A program made the position numbers and the translations under genes. Below the pieces are notes generated by a model, which was not told the origin of the DNA, did not search any database, and was given only the letters and a program-made list of their open reading frames with translations. Shown piece after piece: positions 1,684 to 32,536 of a stretch of DNA of 64,000 nucleotides. How positions within the stretch are numbered: position 1 is the first letter of the stretch; every line of letters begins with the position of its first letter. The stretch comes from Lophium mytilinum (lineage: Eukaryota): NCBI GenBank assembly GCA_010093605.1, contig MU004198.1, positions 1,180,726 to 1,244,725 on the forward strand. Reading direction: 5' to 3'.

Positions 1684-2406
1684 ATAGCTTGATGTAGTCA
1701 GCGAGTTCCCGAAAGGGTCAAGTGATGAGACGAAAGGATACAAGATAAGAGAAGTTGAGATATTCATATTTTACTCCTAATTGACCACGTTCGCCCCACA
1801 ATAGCCAGCTAGGTAGCAATGAGGGTCTAGGTACCCGTGCTAAATGAAAGGTACCTTGATTGCTTCTGAGTACATGTTACACTACATCGTCATAGTTCAG
1901 TGAAGAATTTGTCGGCCGCTTTTCAAGTCCCGTGACCGGTTTCCCTGATCCGAAAATTCTCAGTCTGGACAACTAGCAGGCCATCCTAGGGTGGCGGAAG
2001 CGGAGACGGTGAGTGTTGACGGAACGTGCGGGGATTGGGTCTGTTATGGGGTAATGTATGGGGTAATAGCGTGTTGAGGTTCTGCTGGGCACGTGTGGTT
2101 ATCGTCGAGTGCACAGGTGTTGAGGCTGATTCGGGCAGCTGCGGACGAGCCGACATATCTGGGCAGCGTGGCAGCCAACCCGCAGCAGTGAATAGCACCA
2201 TGTTGCCCACCGCTGACGCAGCTCGACACTCTATTTATCGACACAACAGCACACGGCGAACACACTTCCGGCAGACAACCCCGAATCTCGTGGTCTCGCT
2301 CGGCCCCGCCCCTCCTTAGTCGCCCTCGGTGCCCTGGTGCCCTCAAAACACCTTGGCTTCGCAGTAAACCGCCGCAAACCGAAACCCACATTTGGGTGCG
2401 ACCACC

Positions 2407-5400
2407 ATGTCCACCATCTCCGCCAACTCGGCCTCTCCCTCCTCCAAGGGCGGCCTCCAGAATCAGAACCAGAACCACACGCGGACCTACCAAGCATGCA
2501 TACCATGTCGTCGCCGCAAGGTGCGCTGCGACATGGGGCCTGTCGACAATCCCCACGACCCGCCCTGTGTACGCTGCCGCCGTGAGAGCAAAGAGTGCTT
2601 CTTCTCCGCCACCCGTCGCAAGCGCAAACCCCAGGACAGCGGCGACGGCTTCGAGGACGACGGCGAGCTCTCCGACTACGAGATCCGCAATGGTCGGAAG
2701 CGCCTGAAGTCGCTGCCATCCGAGGGCCCGAGTCGCCCAGACGTCCTCAACACCAGCCGCTCGACCTCCTACACCTCCAACCAGCCGCAGCCTCCCCTCA
2801 CCCCCGGCGGCTCTGTCGCACGATATGAGCCCCTCCGCCGACCGGGCACGAACACCCACCAGACCCCTCCGAACCCACCGAATGACGAGGACGACCAGAA
2901 GCTGAACAATGCGACGGCTGCGATTATGGCGAGCAAGGAGGTCTATAGCGGACACGATGCCTTGAATCTCCTCTTCGAAGCGGCGGGACGCAATGGCGAT
3001 ATCGAGCAGCATCACCGAACCGGCAGCTCGGGAAGCCATGCGCGCCCGATGCTGGGCATGGCCAACACCCCAGGCTCGCAGAACAGCTATCAGAGTCCGC
3101 AGGCTAATACGCTGCCGAATCTTAGGGGAGGAATTGGTGGGAACATGAGGAATACGGCAGAGGCGGCGGTAGATCCGGCCATTCAGATCAACCCGAGTGA
3201 CCAGATCTCAACCACCGACGCGACATATGCCGATGCTATCAGGGCATGGGGACGCTTCCGCTTCGTGCGCGCCGGATGGCTTACGGCAAAGGAAGCTATT
3301 GCCTATATCGACTACTTCTACACCTACCTCTCACCCCTCACGCCCATTGTAGTGCCCGATTACCGCGATCACAGCTTGCATGCCAAGCTGCTGAAGGATG
3401 AGCCCCTCCTAACCGTCACTTTACTCACGATTGCCTCTCGATTTGCGCCCCTCGCCGGCCCAGGCGCCAGCTCGAGACCCTATGCCATTCACGAGAAGCT
3501 CTGGTCATACCTGCAGGGAATGGTAGATCGGTTGATATGGGGCCAGGAACAATTCGGGGGTGGGTTTTGCGGAGCCGGACAGCAGGCTGGATCCGATGTC
3601 AACCCGCTTTCCCGCAAAGGCCTCAGGACTCTTGGGACGGTGGAGAGCTTGATGCTGCTGACTGAATGGCATCCGCGAGCTCTGCATTATCCTCCCGGCG
3701 ATGACGATGACGAGCTCCTCGTCCCTGAGACCGGCGAAAGCAGCAGTGTCTCCATGGACCTGTTTAAAGGAGGTCCCGGTGGACAGCGGATCGACAGCTG
3801 GCTGGAACCGTGTTGGCGAAGTGACAGGATGTAAGTGCTTCAAAACCGTAAATAAACACAAATACTAACTCGTTAAGGTGTTGGATGTTGCTGGGAAATG
3901 CCGTGGCTCTGGCCGTCGAAATCGGAGTTTTCGACGAGAAGAGCGAGGCCGAGTTCCAGGAGGATAACGCAAACCTCCCGCATTCGATAGTGAAGGCATA
4001 CTATCGCCGTCGGAACCACCTCAAAGATCTCCTCAATATCTACCTCAGCCAGACCAGCGGCCGTCTCGGCCTTACTTCCATGGTCGGTCTCACCTCCATG
4101 TTGCCAAAGGTCCAGCGTGACCTCCAGCCCTCCGAGAAGCGCCCAACAGATGTCTTTGCCGAGCGTATGGCCGATATCAAGCGCCAAACCTCCTTCATGT
4201 CCCTTGGCGCCCCCGGCGCCCCCCGCCAGCAGGGACCCTTCGAGACAATTCCAACCCAGACTCGCCATGCCATCCAAGACTTGGTGCTGAATTTCTGGGA
4301 CGAAATTGCCAAAATCATGGAGTTGGGAAACCTGGAGTTGTTTGCGAGTCGGAAGTCGACCCGGAATGTCATAGCCACTGGCGAGTATCAGCAGAAGTTG
4401 CAGTCATTTCAAGACCCATTGAAGAATTGGAAGGCGGACTTCGATAGATCCAAAGACTGTAAGTGCATTGAACTACCAGCGTCTGATTATAAATTCGATT
4501 TCAAGACAAATGCTCTGACAGACACGACAGTGCCAGCTCAACTTCGCCACATCTTGATGATCGAGTACGATTATACCCGCGTCTATATCAACTCGCTCGC
4601 GCTCCAAGCCGTCTTAGAGCGCGTGAAACAAGACACAGCACCTCCCGATCAGCTCCACCCTGGGTCCTTCGCCTCTAACTCCAGGCAGCCGTCATCCAAC
4701 GCTGGCCTTGGCGCCAACCCGCACTCCATGGGAACGAAATGGTACGGCAACGACCGCTACTACGTCAGCGAAGTCAGCGACGGGTGCCGCTCTCTGCTCC
4801 GGACCGTCGTCGAAGGCCTATATCCCGGGGACTATCTCAAGCATGCCCCAGTCCGGACTTTCTTCCGCATCATCAGCGTTGCCATCATCCTGCTGAAGAC
4901 ATTCGCCCTTGGTGCGCCTGAAGACGACGTGGCCCTCTCGCTCGGCCTCCTCAGCCGCGCTATCGAGGCCCTCCGGAGCAGCATCGTCGACGACGTCCAC
5001 GTCGGCAACCGCTTCGCCGACCTCCTCGACACCCTCACCCGCCGCACCCGCGCTCGCTTCGTGCGCCTGACCACTACCGGTGGCTCCGCAGGGATCTCCC
5101 GCGCCGGGTCGCACGAACCGCCCGGCCCAACGGGCACGCAGGCTCCAATGATGCCGCCGCCGACCGGTCCGTTGGGTGCTGGAGGCGCGCAATGGGGCGC
5201 TGGTGCGGCCGGCTCTGGCTTCGGCCTCTCCAACCCCACCTCCCCCAGCCTATCAAACCGCAACACGCCAATGCTGCACGGCGGCCAAACGCAGAATCAC
5301 AACCAGAATCAGAACCACACCCAGACGCAAAACCACGCCCACCAGAACCCGCTCTGGGGCATCTCAACCGAGCCGTACGACCCCGCGAACAATAACGTCA

Positions 5401-5684
5401 GCATTATGCCGCCGCCGTACACGTTCCCGTATAACGTCCAGGGCCACAATCACGCCGCCGCAAACACGAACGAGCACCTGCACTTCGGGAACGGCACGGG
5501 CAATGGCTTGGGCGCGGCCGGTGGGGACCAGCAGGACGGGTATTTCCCGGATTGGCTGGCGCTGCCGCTGGATCCGCTGCTAAATACGGCGTGGGGGCAG
5601 GATGTGAATCAGACGACGTTTGGGCCGGATGGGGGCACGGATTTGCTAGATTTGTTGCTGAGTATGGGGGGTGGTGGGGGATAA
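2407..5684 (+). CDS. aro80: Zn(II)2Cys6 fungal transcription factor, Aro80-like; introns 3831-3877 and probably 4459-4530
   Basis: Binuclear cluster RTYQACIPCRRRKVRCDMGPVDNPHDPPCVRCRRESKECFF. Middle homology region (LRTLGTVESLMLLTEWHPRALH, WRSDRMCWMLLG, LKHAPVRTFFRI) and C-terminal DWLALPLDPL resemble filamentous-fungal Aro80 proteins. Splice sites are canonical and preserve frame. Confidence 0.85.
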
Positions 5685-6309
5685 GTGGGTGTGTAGAGGG
5701 GCGGGTGTGTAAGTTCGATTTTAGGTATATTGATGTGATTTCTGGCGATGGCGTTGGCGGAGCGTATGGGATGGTCGGAGGCTAGCCTACGATGGTTTGG
5801 CTGTACTATATGTACAGCGTAGCGGGTTTGAGGCTTTTGAGATTTTTGGCGAGTTGGCCTTACTTTACGTGCCATAAAGGGCTTGAGATTCTTGATGCTT
5901 ATATGAGCGAGCTGGGTTGCTTGAGATTATGCGGGGGGTTAGATGGGTTGGGTAGATGGAATCACTGCTTATTAGCGGCTGCGGAATGATCAAAGTATTA
6001 TAATATTATTTTACGAGAGGGAAGTGAGGTTCGTGAAGACGATATCGAGACATGAGTGTTTCAACAGAGGCCTGCAAGTAATAGATTCAGTTCTTTGTAT
6101 CTCTACGCGCCAACTCGAGGATGTGTTCTCGCTACTTTCTAGAGCTGTATAAACTGTGGAATGCAGGCCGTAGTATCTGATATTAGAAGGAAGCCGAGCT
6201 GATATATAGAAATGCAACCAAATTTGCAATAGCGATTGCTTGTTGGGGTTGATTGTTATAATCCAGTATAGTTCCGGACCTCACCTATATCAGCCGCACT
6301 ATTTCCCAG

Positions 6310-6492
6310 ATCCAGTACTCTTCGGGGGGCTGGATGATCTGCGGCGTGCAACCGTAGCTTAGCCAGTTGGTTCAGCGCGACAACAGTTGTTGCCGCCAAG
6401 GCCAAAAACTCCTCGTTTGTAGCGGAGGGGGGGGGGGGGGTTCTGTACGGCTTCGGCCCGAGTTTTTTTGGGGTTGGGTTCGAATCCTAATT
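6310..6492 (+). ncRNA. Putative structured ncRNA, unit 1 of tandem family
   Basis: Ordered hairpins: ATCCAGTACTC-TTCG-GGGGGCTGGAT; CTGCGG-CGTGCAA-CCGTAG; long middle arm; AAAACTCCTCGTT-TGT-AGCGGAG(G)n; GGC-TTCG-GCC. Then T7 and GGTTCGAATCC (6477-6487). Confidence 0.55.
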
Positions 6493-6640
6493 GAGGGAGG
6501 GTTTATTTTGGTGACTCAGTGAGACGTGTTGAGAACAAGGGACAGGTTAGGATGGTGAGTTAGGATACGTCATAATCGGAGGTTAGCAAGGGGAAGGTCA
6601 AACGAAGACTATGCATATGTATTCTTTTATTTTCCGCTTC

Positions 6641-6817
6641 GAGTCCCTTTCGGGGGCTGCATGAGTTACGGCGTGCAACCGCAGCTCAGAGCAGGGTAGC
6701 TTAGCGGTCCTTCCGAGGACTCGCGAACTTACCTAGAGTATAAAATTCCCTGTTTGTAGCGGGGGGTTTTTGTAGGACTTCGGTCTGAGTTTTTTTGGGG
6801 TTGGGTTCGAGTCCGGG
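6641..6817 (+). ncRNA. Putative structured ncRNA, unit 2 of tandem family
   Basis: AGTCCC-TTTCG-GGGGCT; GAGTTACGG-CGTGCAA-CCGCAGCTC; GCGGTCCT-TCCG-AGGACTCGC; AAAATTCCCTGTT-TGT-AGCGGGGGGTTTT; GGAC-TTCG-GTCT. Then T7 and GGTTCGAGTCC (6804-6814). Confidence 0.55.
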
Positions 6818-7012
6818 TGCGAAGTGATGTCTTTTTCTTTTCTTTTAGTGGGTGATCTTTGGGACTTGCGATGTTAAGAGTTGAAAGTGTGTTGAGAGTC
6901 GAGAGATGTATAGGGAGGGATGCGATACTCAACGTTAGAGGTCTCTAACGCTGAACTGGCATTAACCTTACTTTACATAAACTATGTATGTATACCCTCT
7001 TATTTCCTCACC

Positions 7013-7184
7013 GAGTCCCCTTTGGGGGGCTGGCTCAGTGGTAGCCTGCAGTGCTTGCTAGGAGGCGGAGACGCCCGTTTTAGGGTTGTCGGTTTTCTAG
7101 TCGATAAAATTCCTCGTTTGTAGCGGGGGGTTTTGGTAGGGCTTCGGCCTGAGATTTTTGGTTAGGGATAGGTTCGAAGCTGTG
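7013..7184 (+). ncRNA. Putative structured ncRNA, unit 3 of tandem family
   Basis: AGTCCCC-TTTG-GGGGGCT; A-box TGGCTCAGTGG (7031-7041); CTAGGAGGC..GGTTTTCTAG arm; AAAATTCCTCGTT-TGT-AGCGGGGGGTTTT; GGGC-TTCG-GCCT; GATTTTTGG; GGTTCGAAGC (7171-7180). Confidence 0.55.
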
Positions 7185-8289
7185 TGTTGACACGGTTTCA
7201 TTTCTTCTTACTTCATGAATGGTTCTAATGTGTCGTGATTATAAGACGAATGCGATTCGACGTTGACGAAGCTCGTTTGAACCCCCGGACACTTCATGAT
7301 ATAACCCCCATTATTTCCCAGCTTTGAGAAGATTCAGGGCCCGCATAGAGGGTTTTCTGGTGTTTTCAGCGGGCAATCGGTTGTGCAGGATGCGAAGAGT
7401 GATAGTTAAGAATGGATGAGTGAGTGGGAAGAAGTAGCAAGAATGAAAAAAGGGGTAAGTTCTTGCATCTAGCATGGCCAGCCCTACGAAATAAAGTTCT
7501 GACGAAATCATGACGGTGGGCCGCTAGAAGCAGATCTAAGCATCACCTTGAACTTTAACAAGACGATTAACTCTTAGGAGATGGGTGCACATCACGTGTC
7601 TATCACCTGACATGTAAAATATAGCATCGCGGAAACTTATAAGTTTCTAGAGGTAAGGACTTGCAACTTCAAGTCACTTGCCCGGTGACCGATTTTTGTA
7701 CTCTGGGCTCGCCATGCTGTTCATCTTGAATACCTGCCGCTTTCTCTCAACAAGCCCAAGATAGTCTCAGCAGGAAAGAATTTCAAGACAGCTTCCAACT
7801 TGCATATAATGATCTGATAGGTAGTAGCAAAGTCACACCTCCACATATCTGGGACCTGAATATTCCATTCGCTTGACGGCGCTTCGAGGAGCAATGCTAC
7901 GCGAATTGGGCTGAAAATGATACGCTACTTTCCTTGGCTACTACACTGTTTTTCAGCTCTCGTTCTGGGCCGCACGCCTCTCGACCATGACCTTGTAACA
8001 AAGGCTTGGCTATCCAAACATCGCACTCCATGAGTATTGTGGCGGGCGCCTTAGGCCTTGTCTTTCCTAGTCTGTTTCTTCGTGACCTATGCTGCGACGA
8101 GCAGCGCCTCTCTGATCATGGCATCAAGCTTAATTCAGCCCTTGCCGTACACTCGAGCATCTGGATCGTGGACTAGCATGAAGCAATTGTCTCGTGGCCA
8201 CTACTGGATATGCGAGAAATAGTCCTTTCATCCGTCCTCTTAGTAGTAAATTCGTCTTCTTGGTCTTTTATCTGAGTAGTCAAGTCACA

Positions 8290-30181: not shown

Positions 30182-31916
30182 ATGGCGCCTCGTTTCTCAA
30201 GAACCATACTAGCCTTTTGCTTTCTTCTCTCCTCTGTGGGCGCAATACCTAGTCAAGGCACCTTCATTGGCATAACAGCATGCTCCACAAACTTCTCCCA
30301 GAACATGACCGAGATGACCCTCCCGCAGTGTTACTCCCTCTGCGGCACGGGCTGGGCATCCTACGACAAATGGGACGCCCTTACCAGCATTTTGACCTGG
30401 GTGGTACCTCTCTTCGTACTAGTCGGCAACATGCACTTCTCACACTTCGATGTCGCCATCTACAAGAAGCACCCAAACCAGCGATGGTGGTATGCCGCAC
30501 GGCGAGTTGTGGTAAACGACAGTCGCAGTCTACTTTTCAACTACGCTTTTGTGATACTACACGTCCTTGCCGACCCAATCGATACGATATGGAGTCTGCT
30601 GGATAAATTAGCTTTCGCGAGGGAAACAAAGGCATATATCCATCAGCAGATCAGATATCTATCACGCCCTAAGCTCCCAACCGTCACCGCCAAAGGCACC
30701 ATCACCATATCCCTCCACCGCCTACCAACCCACCCCAGCGCACCCAACCCGCAACCCCCAAAGCTCACCCCCCGCAACCTCCAAAACCTACAAATAGTCC
30801 TCTTCGCCCTCGACGACTTCTCTCCCTCCCCCTCCATACCAACCCTCCTCCACCTCCTCCACCACCCTACCCTCCCCTCTCACCACCGCGAGAAGCTGCT
30901 GGACACCCTCACCCACACCGCAACCCTCCTCTCCCAAACCCGCATCAAAAGCGCCCGCCGCGCCGCCCTCGCCGTCATCGCCTACGCCTACCCTCTCTTC
31001 ACCTCCGTCGCCAGCGGCGCCGCCGCCTCCTCCACCCCGCTGCACTTCCCCCACACCATCGCCCTGCGCGAGCTGTACTACTGGCTCATTCCCACCATCG
31101 CGCTTAGCTCAGCGGCGGGCGCGTGGCCGACGGAGAAAATTGCGGAAGTCGCGTTGCTGCCGCTTGTGCGTGAGGTTAATCGGGTCGCGCGGGAGATGGG
31201 GATGAAGGGGGAGAAGATGGTGCTGGAGCCGCTAAGGCCGTGGGGCGGGGCGGTGTATACGTGGCGGCCGGGTAAGCGGGTGAGGTGCTGGGGGGAGGTT
31301 GGGATGCTGGGGAGTGCGCTGGCGGTTGTGGCGGGGGCGTGGGGGTTTAGTTTTGCGATGAGTGTGGTTACGCCGACGCAGGGGTTGGGGTGTAGGGCGG
31401 TGACTGAGGTTGGGTATTTTGCGGCGTGGTGTTTGAGTTGTGCGGGCACGTGGTGGGTGTGTTGGTGGTGGGATAGGGAGAGGGGATGGGGAGAGACGTG
31501 GGGAGAGGGATTTGAGGAGAGAAATGTGAGAGCGCGTCGGCTGTTTATCATGGTGTTGGTTAAGGATGCGGTTTTTGCGGTTCCGATGACTTTGATATTG
31601 TTTTTGGCGTTTAAAGGTATGTCGTAATTATGTCAGGATGTTTGAGCGAAGCTGATGTCTTTTAGGATGGTGGAATAGCTGTGATTGCTGGTCCGCGAGG
31701 TGGAGTCTTGGCTTTACGAAGGCGCGTGTTCCGCTTGGATTGGCCGGGTGGGAGAAGCAGCACGATTACCTTTATTACGCCCTCATTGGGGGTGCACTGG
31801 GTTTTCAAGTGCTTGCCGCAGTGGGCATGGTCGGTTGGAATTGGGGGGTGTTGAGACTGATTTATGGGGATGAGGCGGATGAGAATAGGGTAGGGATATC
31901 GAAGGGAAAGGCATGA
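30182..31916 (+). CDS. Multi-pass membrane protein of unknown function; exons 30182-31616 and 31666-31916
   Basis: Signal-like N-terminus and several hydrophobic helices, with motifs TWVVPL, LADPIDTIWSLL, TPTQGLGCR and GWWNSCDCWS. Intron 31617-31665. Confidence 0.7.
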
Positions 31917-32536
31917 GACGCTCATTTGTGAGTTCTTTATTCTTCCTTTTTGCTAAGGTTCAAATGGAAGCCATTTTACGTGGAGGTCTCCGGGTATACT
32001 TCAGCAAGTCTATGCTGCTTGCATGAGAATTAGATAAACTCAGCATCGCGACCTACTTTTCTCTTCACGTTTTCAACAAGTTCTCTCCTCTCAAAACGAG
32101 ACTTGCTAACTGCAAAGTTTGGTCATAATGCCGAGGATCACGAAGAGTATGGGTTCAGACATCAAACATCCAATGTGATCATGCGGTTCTCGCGTCCTAA
32201 TTGGCCACCGTCGACTTCATACGTTTTTCCCCACCACCTCCCTTTGCGGCAACATTCTCCACATGTCCAGTAACAAAACGATGGCATCAGCTCTATTCAA
32301 GTCCCGACATGATTTTTCGGCAATAAGTTCCTCCTTCGCACATCATTCGCCCTAGTATGAGCAACCCCGAAGTCTGATCCCACCCGCCTCATGCCAACCT
32401 TGGAACCACTTCACTGGCAGTCTGGAACCTCCAGTCATTAGCTTTCCAGCATTCGAAAAGGATATATATACCACGGCCCGCCAGTCATGCCCCTTTTATT
32501 TTTCGCTGTTCCTTACATACTATCCACCCAACTTCC

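Follow-up and report, generated by a model that had tools for sequence, protein, structure and literature searches.

Three copies of a repeated, non-coding and structured element lie in tandem, between genes, on the + strand of the window (the whole 64-kb stretch of DNA that was analysed), at approximately 6285–6487, 6614–6814 and 6990–7181. Their start-to-start distances are 327–373 nt, in agreement with the sequence-only reading of this locus, which had placed three units here at a spacing of 330–370 bp. All seven elements listed in that reading were recovered from the sequence of each unit, always in the same order. The first is a 5' hairpin with the loop UUCG, UUUCG or UUUG, which ends in GGGGGCU in all three units. 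It is followed by a hairpin with the loop CGUGCAA or CUGCAGU and by a long arm that varies among the units. The fourth element (helix 4) is an 11-bp stem formed by AAAAUUCCYYG and CGGGGGGUUUU with the loop UUUGUAG, and the fifth (helix 5) is a hairpin of the form GRC-UUCG-GYC. A run of 7, 7 and 5 T follows in units 1, 2 and 3, respectively, with G as the next base in each, and GGTTCGA is located 7–11 nt past this run. The units reach approximately 25–35 nt further upstream than previously described, into a conserved TATA/ATTATTTCC region.

The upstream promoter-like region of unit 1 (6285..6306, +) consists of CTATATC, which is TATA-like and lies about 27 nt before the hairpin, and of ACTATTTCC. 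It falls into the direct-repeat families D2 and D8 and shares 83% identity over 23 nt with 7299–7321. The predicted RNA body (6311..6469, +) comprises hairpin 1 (6311–6334), hairpin 2 (about 6339–6357, loop CGUGCAA), the variable arm (6356–6403), helix 4 (6404–6444), the UUCG hairpin (6449–6458) and the T7 run (6463–6469). Helix 4 of this unit carries one A-C mismatch and an expanded run of 14 G. The B box GGTTCGAATCC (6477..6487, +) is an exact match to the pattern and begins 7 nt past the T run.

In unit 2, the upstream region (6614..6634, +; CATATGTAT and TTTATTTTC) belongs to D2 and D7 and takes part in the alignment of the 5' block. The predicted body (6641..6796, +) contains hairpin 1 (6642–6658), hairpin 2 (6663–6687, loop CGUGCAA), the variable arm (about 6694–6734) with the A-box-like word TAGCTTAGCGG (6697–6707, one mismatch), an 11-bp helix 4 with the loop UUUGUAG (6742–6770), the UUCG hairpin (6775–6786) and the T7 run (6790–6796). 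The B box GGTTCGAGTCC (6804..6814, +) is again found 7 nt past this run. Unit 3 starts with the upstream region 6984..7007 (+; TATGTATGTATACCC and CTTATTTCC; D2 and D7). Its predicted body (7013..7159, +) consists of hairpin 1 (7014–7031), the perfect A box TGGCTCAGTGG (7031–7041), the hairpin with the CUGCAGU loop, a long G-U-rich arm (about 7055–7104), helix 4 (7106–7134), the UUCG hairpin (7139–7150) and the T5 run (7155–7159); the B-box-like GGTTCGAAGCT (7171..7181, +) is located 11 nt past the latter. A fourth, promoter-only relic at 7299..7340 (+), 312 nt after the equivalent region of unit 3, has ATATAACCCCCATTATTTCCCAG followed by a diverged start and belongs to D2, D7 and D8. The covariance model built from the three units (R1) gave no match in the body of the relic.

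R1 was searched against the 64 kb on both strands with filters off (E ≤ 10). The units scored 160–189 bits (160.5, 189.3 and 173.7 for units 1, 2 and 3), and the next best among the 20 matches listed at E ≤ 10 reached 8.3 bits. Similarity between the repeat periods is limited to two blocks. The 5' (promoter) block spans 53–60 nt at 77% identity for units 1–2 and 2–3 and only 20 nt at 85% (E 0.064) for units 1–3, and the 3' block spans 54–83 nt at 72–87% in all three pairs. The spacers had been described as unrelated and indeed yielded no alignment with each other; the middles of the units are equally unalignable. The region also lacks coding potential, as had been stated, since no open reading frame of at least 80 aa is present in 5875–8194.

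The units match no known family. Searched with Rfam at the gathering threshold, the whole window gave no match, and a permissive search of 6200–7300 yielded three matches, all far below the gathering scores. ARAGORN with default settings found no tRNA gene in the window or in 6200–7700, and no Rfam tRNA match was obtained at E ≤ 10 in 6200–7300; both results agree with the earlier reading, which could not match the units to tRNA. A tRNA with a long intron was rejected after ARAGORN at 80% stringency with introns allowed returned five mutually inconsistent low-quality calls in 1.5 kb, three of them on the minus strand. U6 snRNA was likewise discarded: the Rfam U6 model is absent at the gathering threshold in the window and at E ≤ 10 in 6200–7300, and the units are devoid of ACAGAGA. 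CUGAG precedes the T run in units 2 and 3 and CCGAG in unit 1. A box C/D snoRNA was nevertheless rejected, as unit 3 is free of C-like words (GGAUGAUC, CAUGAGU), no terminal stem was seen by eye and no snoRNA model matched the units. The 5' part of unit 3 bears what we take to be a word-level resemblance to the 7SL/Alu 5' region. Rfam SRP models gave no match at E ≤ 10 in 6200–7300, and neither hammerhead nor SRP-Alu-like readings gained support by eye or from Rfam. In the literature searched, the motif strings retrieved only unrelated papers, none on a fungal ncRNA, and publications on fungal Pol III ncRNAs contained no description of such a family. Neurospora milRNA loci transcribed by Pol III have neither A nor B boxes according to the excerpted text of PMC3547838.

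Folding was evaluated with z-scores from dinucleotide shuffles on both strands of each unit. The values for the + and − strand were +0.80 and +0.41 for unit 1, −2.40 and −1.99 for unit 2 and −3.48 and +0.04 for unit 3. Unit 1 as a whole folds no better than its shuffles and may therefore be a decaying copy, and unit 2 also folds well on the minus strand. These values bear on the earlier argument that G-U pairs reveal selection on a + strand RNA. The richness in G-U pairs is real, with 4–6 of them among the 12–14 pairs of helix 4, and the summed helix energies are −161 kcal/mol on the + strand versus −97 kcal/mol on the − strand. The argument holds only in part: a whole-unit preference for the + strand is clear only in unit 3, and the case made from G-U pairs is confounded by the G+T-rich composition of that strand (GC skew +0.156), which by itself favours + strand folding.

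Covariation within the three units is thin. A single pair of helix 5 is compensatory (A-U in unit 2, G-C in the other two), and the RNAalifold covariation term is only −0.75 kcal/mol. The only addition to this comes from a by-eye reading of 30-nt contig ends derived from other copies. In two of the three distinct sequences preceding 7125–7127, the loop-proximal pairs of helix 4 are U-A, in place of the C-G and U-G of unit 3, and the loop has another sequence as well. Judged from these sequences, helix 4 is kept by compensation.

The proposed multicopy nature of the element was confirmed by assembly contigs, which reveal, read by eye, at least three further copies elsewhere in the genome. They have the upstream motif in common with the array, show compensation in helix 4 and carry a B box past the T run. 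One contig that enters unit 2 at 6639 is preceded by ...ATATACCCCATTATTTTC..., which is the same upstream motif. Two contigs leaving at 6794/6795 go on as ...GGTTCAATTC... and ...GGTTCGAGTC..., and one leaving at 7160 goes on as ...GAGTTCGAGA.... Three of four such flanks contain the B-box core within 30 nt (by eye), in otherwise different sequence; the 30 nt of one 3' flank contain no B box. The RNA contig of another copy continues past its T run. Within the window, position 31947 was ruled out as an extra member on reading, and weak motif matches at 31323 and 33981 (three mismatches each) were set aside. A metagenome scan for homologues with the pattern TASGRCTTCGGYCYGAGNTTTT gave two loci, neither of which was accepted: one (L001) is AT-rich, coding-like sequence, and the other (L002) lies on a GC-rich, bacterial-looking contig, where the pattern fell on a terminator-like hairpin that follows a stop codon.

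TATA-like words occur 22–27 nt before hairpin 1, the predicted start, in all three units and in the relic. An A box (TRGCNNAGTGG) is perfect only in unit 3. In unit 1, the sole one-mismatch word lies inside helix 4 (6420–6430), and TAGCTTAGCCAGTTGG is a gapped A-box-like word recognised by eye. The best A-box-like words of units 1 and 2 are found about 45–58 nt into the unit and not at about +20, and words with at most one mismatch are common in the window (33 found versus 24 expected). Every unit combines an oligo-T terminator with a downstream B box (GGTTCGANTCC), and T5 followed by GGTTCRA within 3–25 nt occurs at four distinct places in the 64-kb window compared to 0.30 expected, the units being three of the four. 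A T5 terminator is strengthened by a following A or G, as stated in an excerpt of PMC5356446.

GGUUCGA had been listed as a T-loop/B-box of the structured RNA. The motif sits past the T run, and the copies retain little of the stem that flanks it; it is better read as a downstream B box in DNA. From its position and conservation, a promoter element is more likely than a part of the RNA. With the B box downstream and the TATA-like box upstream, the unit looks like a Pol III gene of the SNR6 layout.

We propose that each unit would be an independent gene for a structured + strand RNA of about 145–157 nt, made by RNA polymerase III. The promoter would be split as in yeast SNR6 (U6): a TATA-like box would precede the start by about 25 nt, an A-box-like element would lie within the transcribed part and a B box for TFIIIC would follow the terminator after 7–11 nt. 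The RNA would start at the 5' hairpin (GAGUCCCC-UUCG-GGGGGCU), terminate at the T5–7 run and end with helix 4, the UUCG hairpin and an oligo-U tail, leaving GGUUCGA outside. Together with the promoter-only relic and the copies elsewhere, of which there are at least three, the three genes would constitute a small, fast-evolving and lineage-restricted family. Its conserved ends and freely varying central arm would recall other Pol III RNAs whose function is unknown or that serve as scaffolds. We have moderate confidence that the units represent an undescribed, lineage-restricted family of Pol III ncRNAs. The analysis shows their anatomy, their pattern of conservation and the lack of a known family; which polymerase reads them, where the RNA begins and ends, and that it is produced and has a use are what we infer.

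Among the other explanations, a decaying repeat family without RNA function is the most serious, but it appears unlikely. It could consist of Pol III pseudogenes or relics of tRNA origin, comparable to yeast ZOD1, or of a low-copy SINE- or MITE-like element; the conserved blocks would then be remnants or DNA bound by TFIIIC, and their clustering here would have arisen through duplication or through insertions that recurred close to Pol III sites. Several tRNA-like words are consistent with such an origin, namely the perfect A box and the D-arm-like GGCU-CAGUGGU-AGCC in unit 3, the T-arm-like UUGGG-UUCGAAU-CCUAA in unit 1 and GTAGCGGGGGG in helix 4, which precedes the B box by 47–57 nt, a tRNA-like spacing (by eye). 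The G expansion and the helix mismatch of unit 1, the relic after the array and the dispersal of the copies, one of which has an exact 35-nt stretch in common with unit 3, point in the same direction. As excerpts of the respective publications report, ZOD1 is an ancient tRNA gene with weak Pol III transcription (PMC5356446), and Aspergillus fumigatus has SINEs related to tRNA that are low in copy number and whose A and B boxes are degenerate (PMC5063351). However, a Pol III SINE copies only the segment from start to terminator, whereas the upstream TATA/ATTATTTCC region and the B box past the T run recur in the dispersed copies. A tRNA-derived SINE was also rejected based on the position of the B box past the T run, the lack of direct repeats flanking the units and the lack of an A-rich or LINE-like tail, and a by-eye inspection of the unit edges revealed no target-site duplications. 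A MITE is disfavoured by the inverted pairs, only three of which exist in 5950–7650, none at unit boundaries, so that no terminal inverted repeats flank the units. Neutral decay would give neither two blocks of 72–87% identity beside an unalignable middle nor compensated pairs in helices 4 and 5, and the ARAGORN results, with no cloverleaf by default and inconsistent calls at 80% stringency, also speak against this explanation.

Considerably less probable is a small RNA resembling the Sm class and made by Pol II, or a precursor of polycistronic type. In that case the U run would represent an Sm site flanked by a hairpin on either side, with the GGUUCGA region lying in a 3' terminal stem-loop of the RNA. 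The Sm-site consensus is RAU4-6GR, and fungal Pol II snRNA genes also use TATA boxes. In unit 3, GAUUUUUGG has the textbook form and is followed downstream by the 6-bp hairpin CUGUGU-GUUG-ACACGG. Units 1 and 2 read GUUUUUUUGG at this site, and in two other copies the U run is followed by C (...AUUUUU-C...), which breaks the consensus. The downstream hairpin is not conserved between the units, the GGTTCGA core is conserved without its stem, and no Rfam snRNA model matched.

We consider it very unlikely that the 3' part is a tRNA-like processing element of the mascRNA type, at which cleavage by RNase P or RNase Z would generate the 3' end of an upstream RNA. Rfam aligned 6450–6497 weakly to mascRNA-menRNA (RF01684), in unit 1 only and with 14.6 bits against a gathering score of 42.5 (E = 9.4). 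By eye, (G/A)CUUCG can form an acceptor-like pairing with the downstream UUGAGG (unit 1) or CGAAGU (unit 2), with changed pairs, but this pairing fails in unit 3 and is in competition with the UUCG hairpin, in which a compensatory pair was seen. Of the five T-stem pairs, unit 1 forms 5/5, unit 2 4/5 and unit 3 2/5 (by eye).

Transcript evidence over the units is limited to one RNA contig from run X3, which is spliced, of low level and on the minus strand, and which spans units 2 and 3. The RNA label of this run is a guess; X3 is treated as RNA because its contigs skip the GT..AG introns of the neighbouring gene, which DNA runs do not. The contig covers 6635–7147 and 7211–7515 with zero differences and joins 7147 to 7211, removing a canonical intron of 63 nt (7149..7211, −; GTAAGA...CTAAC...CAG) that contains the complement of the T run and B box of unit 3. 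X3 coverage excludes unit 1, and that of X4 stops by 5990. That a minus-strand spliced long non-coding RNA is the functional product, with the units incidental within it, is very unlikely given intron signals at unit 3 only (the equivalent sites in units 1 and 2 are without a GT donor), a word depth of 10.7 compared to 155.7 for the contig of the neighbouring gene, a longest open reading frame of 66 aa, conserved blocks that fold far better on the + strand and dispersed copies that would be left unexplained.

Apart from tRNA, 5S, U6, SRP RNA and RNase P RNA, little of what Pol III transcribes in filamentous fungi has been charted. If the Pol III gene reading is true, the units would add a new class of small RNAs for these fungi, the SNR6-type promoter would serve more than U6, and compact natural Pol III expression cassettes would become available, of practical interest for expressing guide RNAs in fungi. 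Even as non-functional relics, the units would still be probable TFIIIC/Pol III binding sites and could affect the neighbouring genes and the antisense transcript.

Compared to known systems, the units share with the fungal SINEs AfuSINE2, MgSINE and Foxy, as excerpted from PMC5063351, the short length, low copy number, dispersal, degenerate A and B boxes and an oligo-T tract. Fungal SINEs, in contrast, carry both boxes in the transcribed 5' part, target-site duplications and LINE-related or A-rich tails, whereas the B box of the units is located past the T run, their upstream flank is conserved among copies, and neither duplications nor tails were seen. RNA170 and ZOD1 of yeast are small loci that are bound by Pol III without belonging to its classical genes; their function is unknown or they descend from ancient tRNA genes (PMC5356446, excerpt). 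Compared by description only, these are single-copy in yeast, whereas the units form a family with conserved non-tRNA hairpins. RUF70 of Yarrowia lipolytica was recognised by T tracks and compensatory changes among its copies (PMC2566860, excerpt). It is about 70 nt long and, lacking a separate promoter, is transcribed together with the tRNA-Trp that precedes it. Again compared by description only, each unit is about 150 nt long and has candidate TATA and A-box elements and a B box of its own.

SNR6, the U6 gene of Saccharomyces cerevisiae, has an upstream TATA, an internal A box, a T-run terminator and a B box in the 3' trailer (PMC5356446, excerpt), a layout that the predicted promoter of the units resembles. 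The RNA is also alike in having a 5' hairpin at the start and oligo-U at the end, the ends being predicted for the units. The units differ from SNR6 in that they are not U6 and are multicopy and diverged. The B box of SNR6 is situated far downstream of the terminator, rather than 7–11 nt past it as in the units. To our knowledge, a B box just past the terminator in a U6-type split promoter has been described among fungal genes only for U6.

Y, vault and similar animal Pol III RNAs are small paralogs with conserved termini, a variable centre and an oligo-U tail. The likeness is a functional analogy only: the units have no Rfam match to them in sequence or structure, and we know of no protein partners of Y- or vault-type RNAs in this fungal group. 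We tentatively propose that this filamentous ascomycete possesses an undescribed, fast-evolving family of Pol III RNAs of about 150 nt, with a U6-type split promoter and a B box just past the terminator. With its conserved terminal hairpins and free central arm, the family could possibly represent, in fungi, what Y, vault or RUF70 RNAs are among small RNP RNAs.

The array of three units (approximately 6285–6487, 6614–6814 and 6990–7181, + strand) described in the sequence-only reading proved to be real. A MAFFT alignment of units 1–3 showed a mean column identity of 72%, and a repeat finder placed the unit parts in register at spacings of 327–373 nt, where 330–370 bp had been noted. All seven elements listed in that reading are present in each unit. 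A covariance model built from the three units scored them at 160–189 bits within the 64 kb, with the next best match at 8.3 bits (filters off). The units were stated to lack coding potential and, indeed, no ORF of at least 80 aa was found. When whole repeat periods were compared by BLASTN, the spacers, correctly described as unrelated, gave no alignment between units, and neither did the unit centres. Similarity is confined to a 5′ block (53–60 nt at 77% for units 1–2 and 2–3, only 20 nt at 85% with an E value of 0.064 for units 1–3) and a 3′ block (54–83 nt at 72–87%). Conservation begins approximately 25–35 nt 5′ of hairpin 1, the 5′ hairpin of the unit, where a TATA-like word precedes (A/C)TTATTTYC. 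This upstream motif occurs a fourth time at 7299–7340 (+; ATATAACCCCCATTATTTCCCAG), ahead of a diverged start and 312 nt past its equivalent in unit 3. It is followed by no recognisable body and no covariance-model match, and is probably a decayed fourth gene.

On the + strand of each unit, the TATA-like word lies 22–27 nt before hairpin 1. After hairpin 1 there is an A-box-like word, perfect in unit 3 (TGGCTCAGTGG, 7031–7041), of which units 1 and 2 have weaker versions, and then a hairpin with a CGUGCAA or CUGCAGU loop and a variable arm. Helix 4, the AAAAUUCCYYG stem, has 11 bp with three G-U pairs in each of units 2 and 3 when paired by eye; the RNAfold version runs into the loop and has 13–14 pairs, 4–5 of them G-U. 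A UUCG hairpin is next, then a T run of 7, 7 and 5 in units 1, 2 and 3, respectively, then G, and GGTTCGA 7–11 nt past the T run. The RNA would end inside the T run, and GGTTCGA, previously taken as a T-loop/B-box, would be a TFIIIC site in the DNA. The motif is present in all units, while a T-loop in the RNA is disfavoured: the would-be T stem has 5/5, 4/5 and 2/5 pairs in units 1, 2 and 3 (by eye). Conservation of the core but not of its stem fits a TFIIIC site. We see an even chance that the units belong to a lineage-restricted, so far undescribed family of small RNA genes of the Pol III type, whose split promoter would resemble that of SNR6, the yeast U6 gene. In SNR6, a TATA box lies 5′ of the transcribed region and an A box within it, and the B box sits in the 3′ trailer, past a T-run terminator (PMC5356446). 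The main rival, a decaying tRNA-derived repeat or a family of TFIIIC sites without functional RNA, is rather improbable in our view, and an Sm-class-like Pol II RNA is a minor alternative.

Selection for a + strand RNA had been proposed from the G-U pairs. The segment-wise folding energies sum to −161 kcal/mol on the + strand compared to −97 kcal/mol on the − strand, and helix 4 yields −12 to −14 compared to −2 to −4.5. The whole-unit z-scores against dinucleotide shuffles (+/− strand) were +0.80/+0.41 for unit 1, −2.40/−1.99 for unit 2 and −3.48/+0.04 for unit 3; the strand signal is thus clear in unit 3, ambiguous in unit 2 and absent in unit 1. RNAalifold predicted 52 pairs for the three units, seven with a double change in some sequence, the cleanest being G-C/A-U in the UUCG hairpin; the covariation term was only −0.75 kcal/mol. 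Helix 4 of unit 1 contains a run of 14 G (6427–6440) of uncertain length, at which contigs of X1 and X2, sequencing runs of probable source DNA, break or end in loose homopolymer.

Partial matches of X1 and X2 contigs from elsewhere in the genome show further copies, at three or more other loci. Among the contigs listed, three (records 5–7) share 7125/7126–7160 with 0–4 differences, one being identical over 35 nt. They are preceded by three distinct sequences, each with an A-rich/C-U-rich 5′ strand plus loop. In two of the three, the loop-proximal pairs are U-A, compared to C-G and U-G in unit 3, and the loops differ, which suggests that helix 4 is kept by compensation and that its loop is not conserved family-wide; this was read by eye from 30-nt loose ends, not computed. 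A contig joining unit 2 at 6639 carries a ATATACCCC-ATTATTTTC motif before it, and in other copies three of four flanks past the T run contain GGTTCAATTC, GGTTCGAGTC or GAGTTCGAGA. A Pol III retroposon would carry neither upstream flank nor sequence past the terminator. The recurrence of both motifs therefore speaks against a SINE and in favour of a gene family that spread as DNA.

Rfam at gathering thresholds gave no match in the whole window, as anticipated. At E ≤ 10, three matches were obtained in 6200–7300, all far below gathering scores: mir-1898, mascRNA and an 11-nt tmRNA T-loop. A mascRNA-type processing element is a minor candidate, and its score of 14.6 bits against a gathering score of 42.5 speaks against it. 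The claim that the units are not tRNAs held, with no tRNA found by ARAGORN; at 80% with introns, five poor, mutually inconsistent calls resulted in 1.5 kb, three on the minus strand, and were rejected. No inverted repeats bound the units, and literature searches found no description of such a family or of its motif strings. A pattern scan for homologues matched a GC-rich, bacterial-looking metagenome contig (L002, 1100–1190, minus strand), with GGTTTGTACGGCTTCGGCCTGAGGTTTT and, 15 nt on, GGGTTCGAG directly past a stop codon. The curious likeness to the 3′ block was taken as a terminator hairpin and chance.

Run X3 was treated as RNA, since its contigs skip GT..AG introns of the neighbouring gene. 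One of these contigs, of 818 nt, joins 6635–7147 and 7211–7515 without differences, at a word depth of 10.7 compared to 155.7 for the neighbouring gene's contig. The 63 nt omitted end in CT..AC on the + strand; on the minus strand they form a canonical fungal intron (7149–7211, GTAAGA...CTAAC...CAG), indicating low-level, spliced minus-strand RNA overlapping units 2 and 3. The intron excises the complement of the T run and B box of unit 3, and the longest ORF of the spliced RNA is 66 aa. A repeat boundary also lies at 6635, so the left end of the contig may be an assembly break. An antisense lncRNA is a minor alternative. Such RNA libraries usually lose small RNAs, and the contig is evidence neither for nor against a + strand small RNA.

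The units lie in a 2.2-kb gap with a + strand gene on either side, between the end of the upstream gene's RNA contig (5985) and the next ORF start (8194). The + strand of the gap is G- and T-rich (GC skew +0.156, 6001–8000). Neighbouring ORFs encode a fungal Zn(2)-Cys(6) domain and Kelch repeats, which marks the window as fungal, and the nearest atlas cluster for a neighbouring protein is an ascomycete fungal-specific transcription factor (weak score, 0.76). The upstream gene (2392–5985, +) looks like a single Zn(2)-Cys(6) transcription factor gene, and its RNA contigs skip introns 3831–3877 and 4459–4530. A separate repeat occurs just 5′ of unit 1 (6154–6240, similarity seemingly on to ~6260), without a match in Rfam; among the contigs of other loci that match it, at 12–17 differences, is one of 3561 nt from X3 with a word depth of 362. 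At 7555–7644 (+), snoR07, a family of box C/D snoRNAs, is matched below threshold (30.1 bits against a gathering score of 44; E 0.015 when 1 kb was searched). The guide-like stretch is aligned, but with AAGACGA as the C box and CUUA as the D box; a snoRNA relic or chance is possible.

If the units are Pol III-type genes, the predicted product may, by analogy, be a stable oligo-U-tailed RNP RNA like RUF70 of Yarrowia (PMC2566860).
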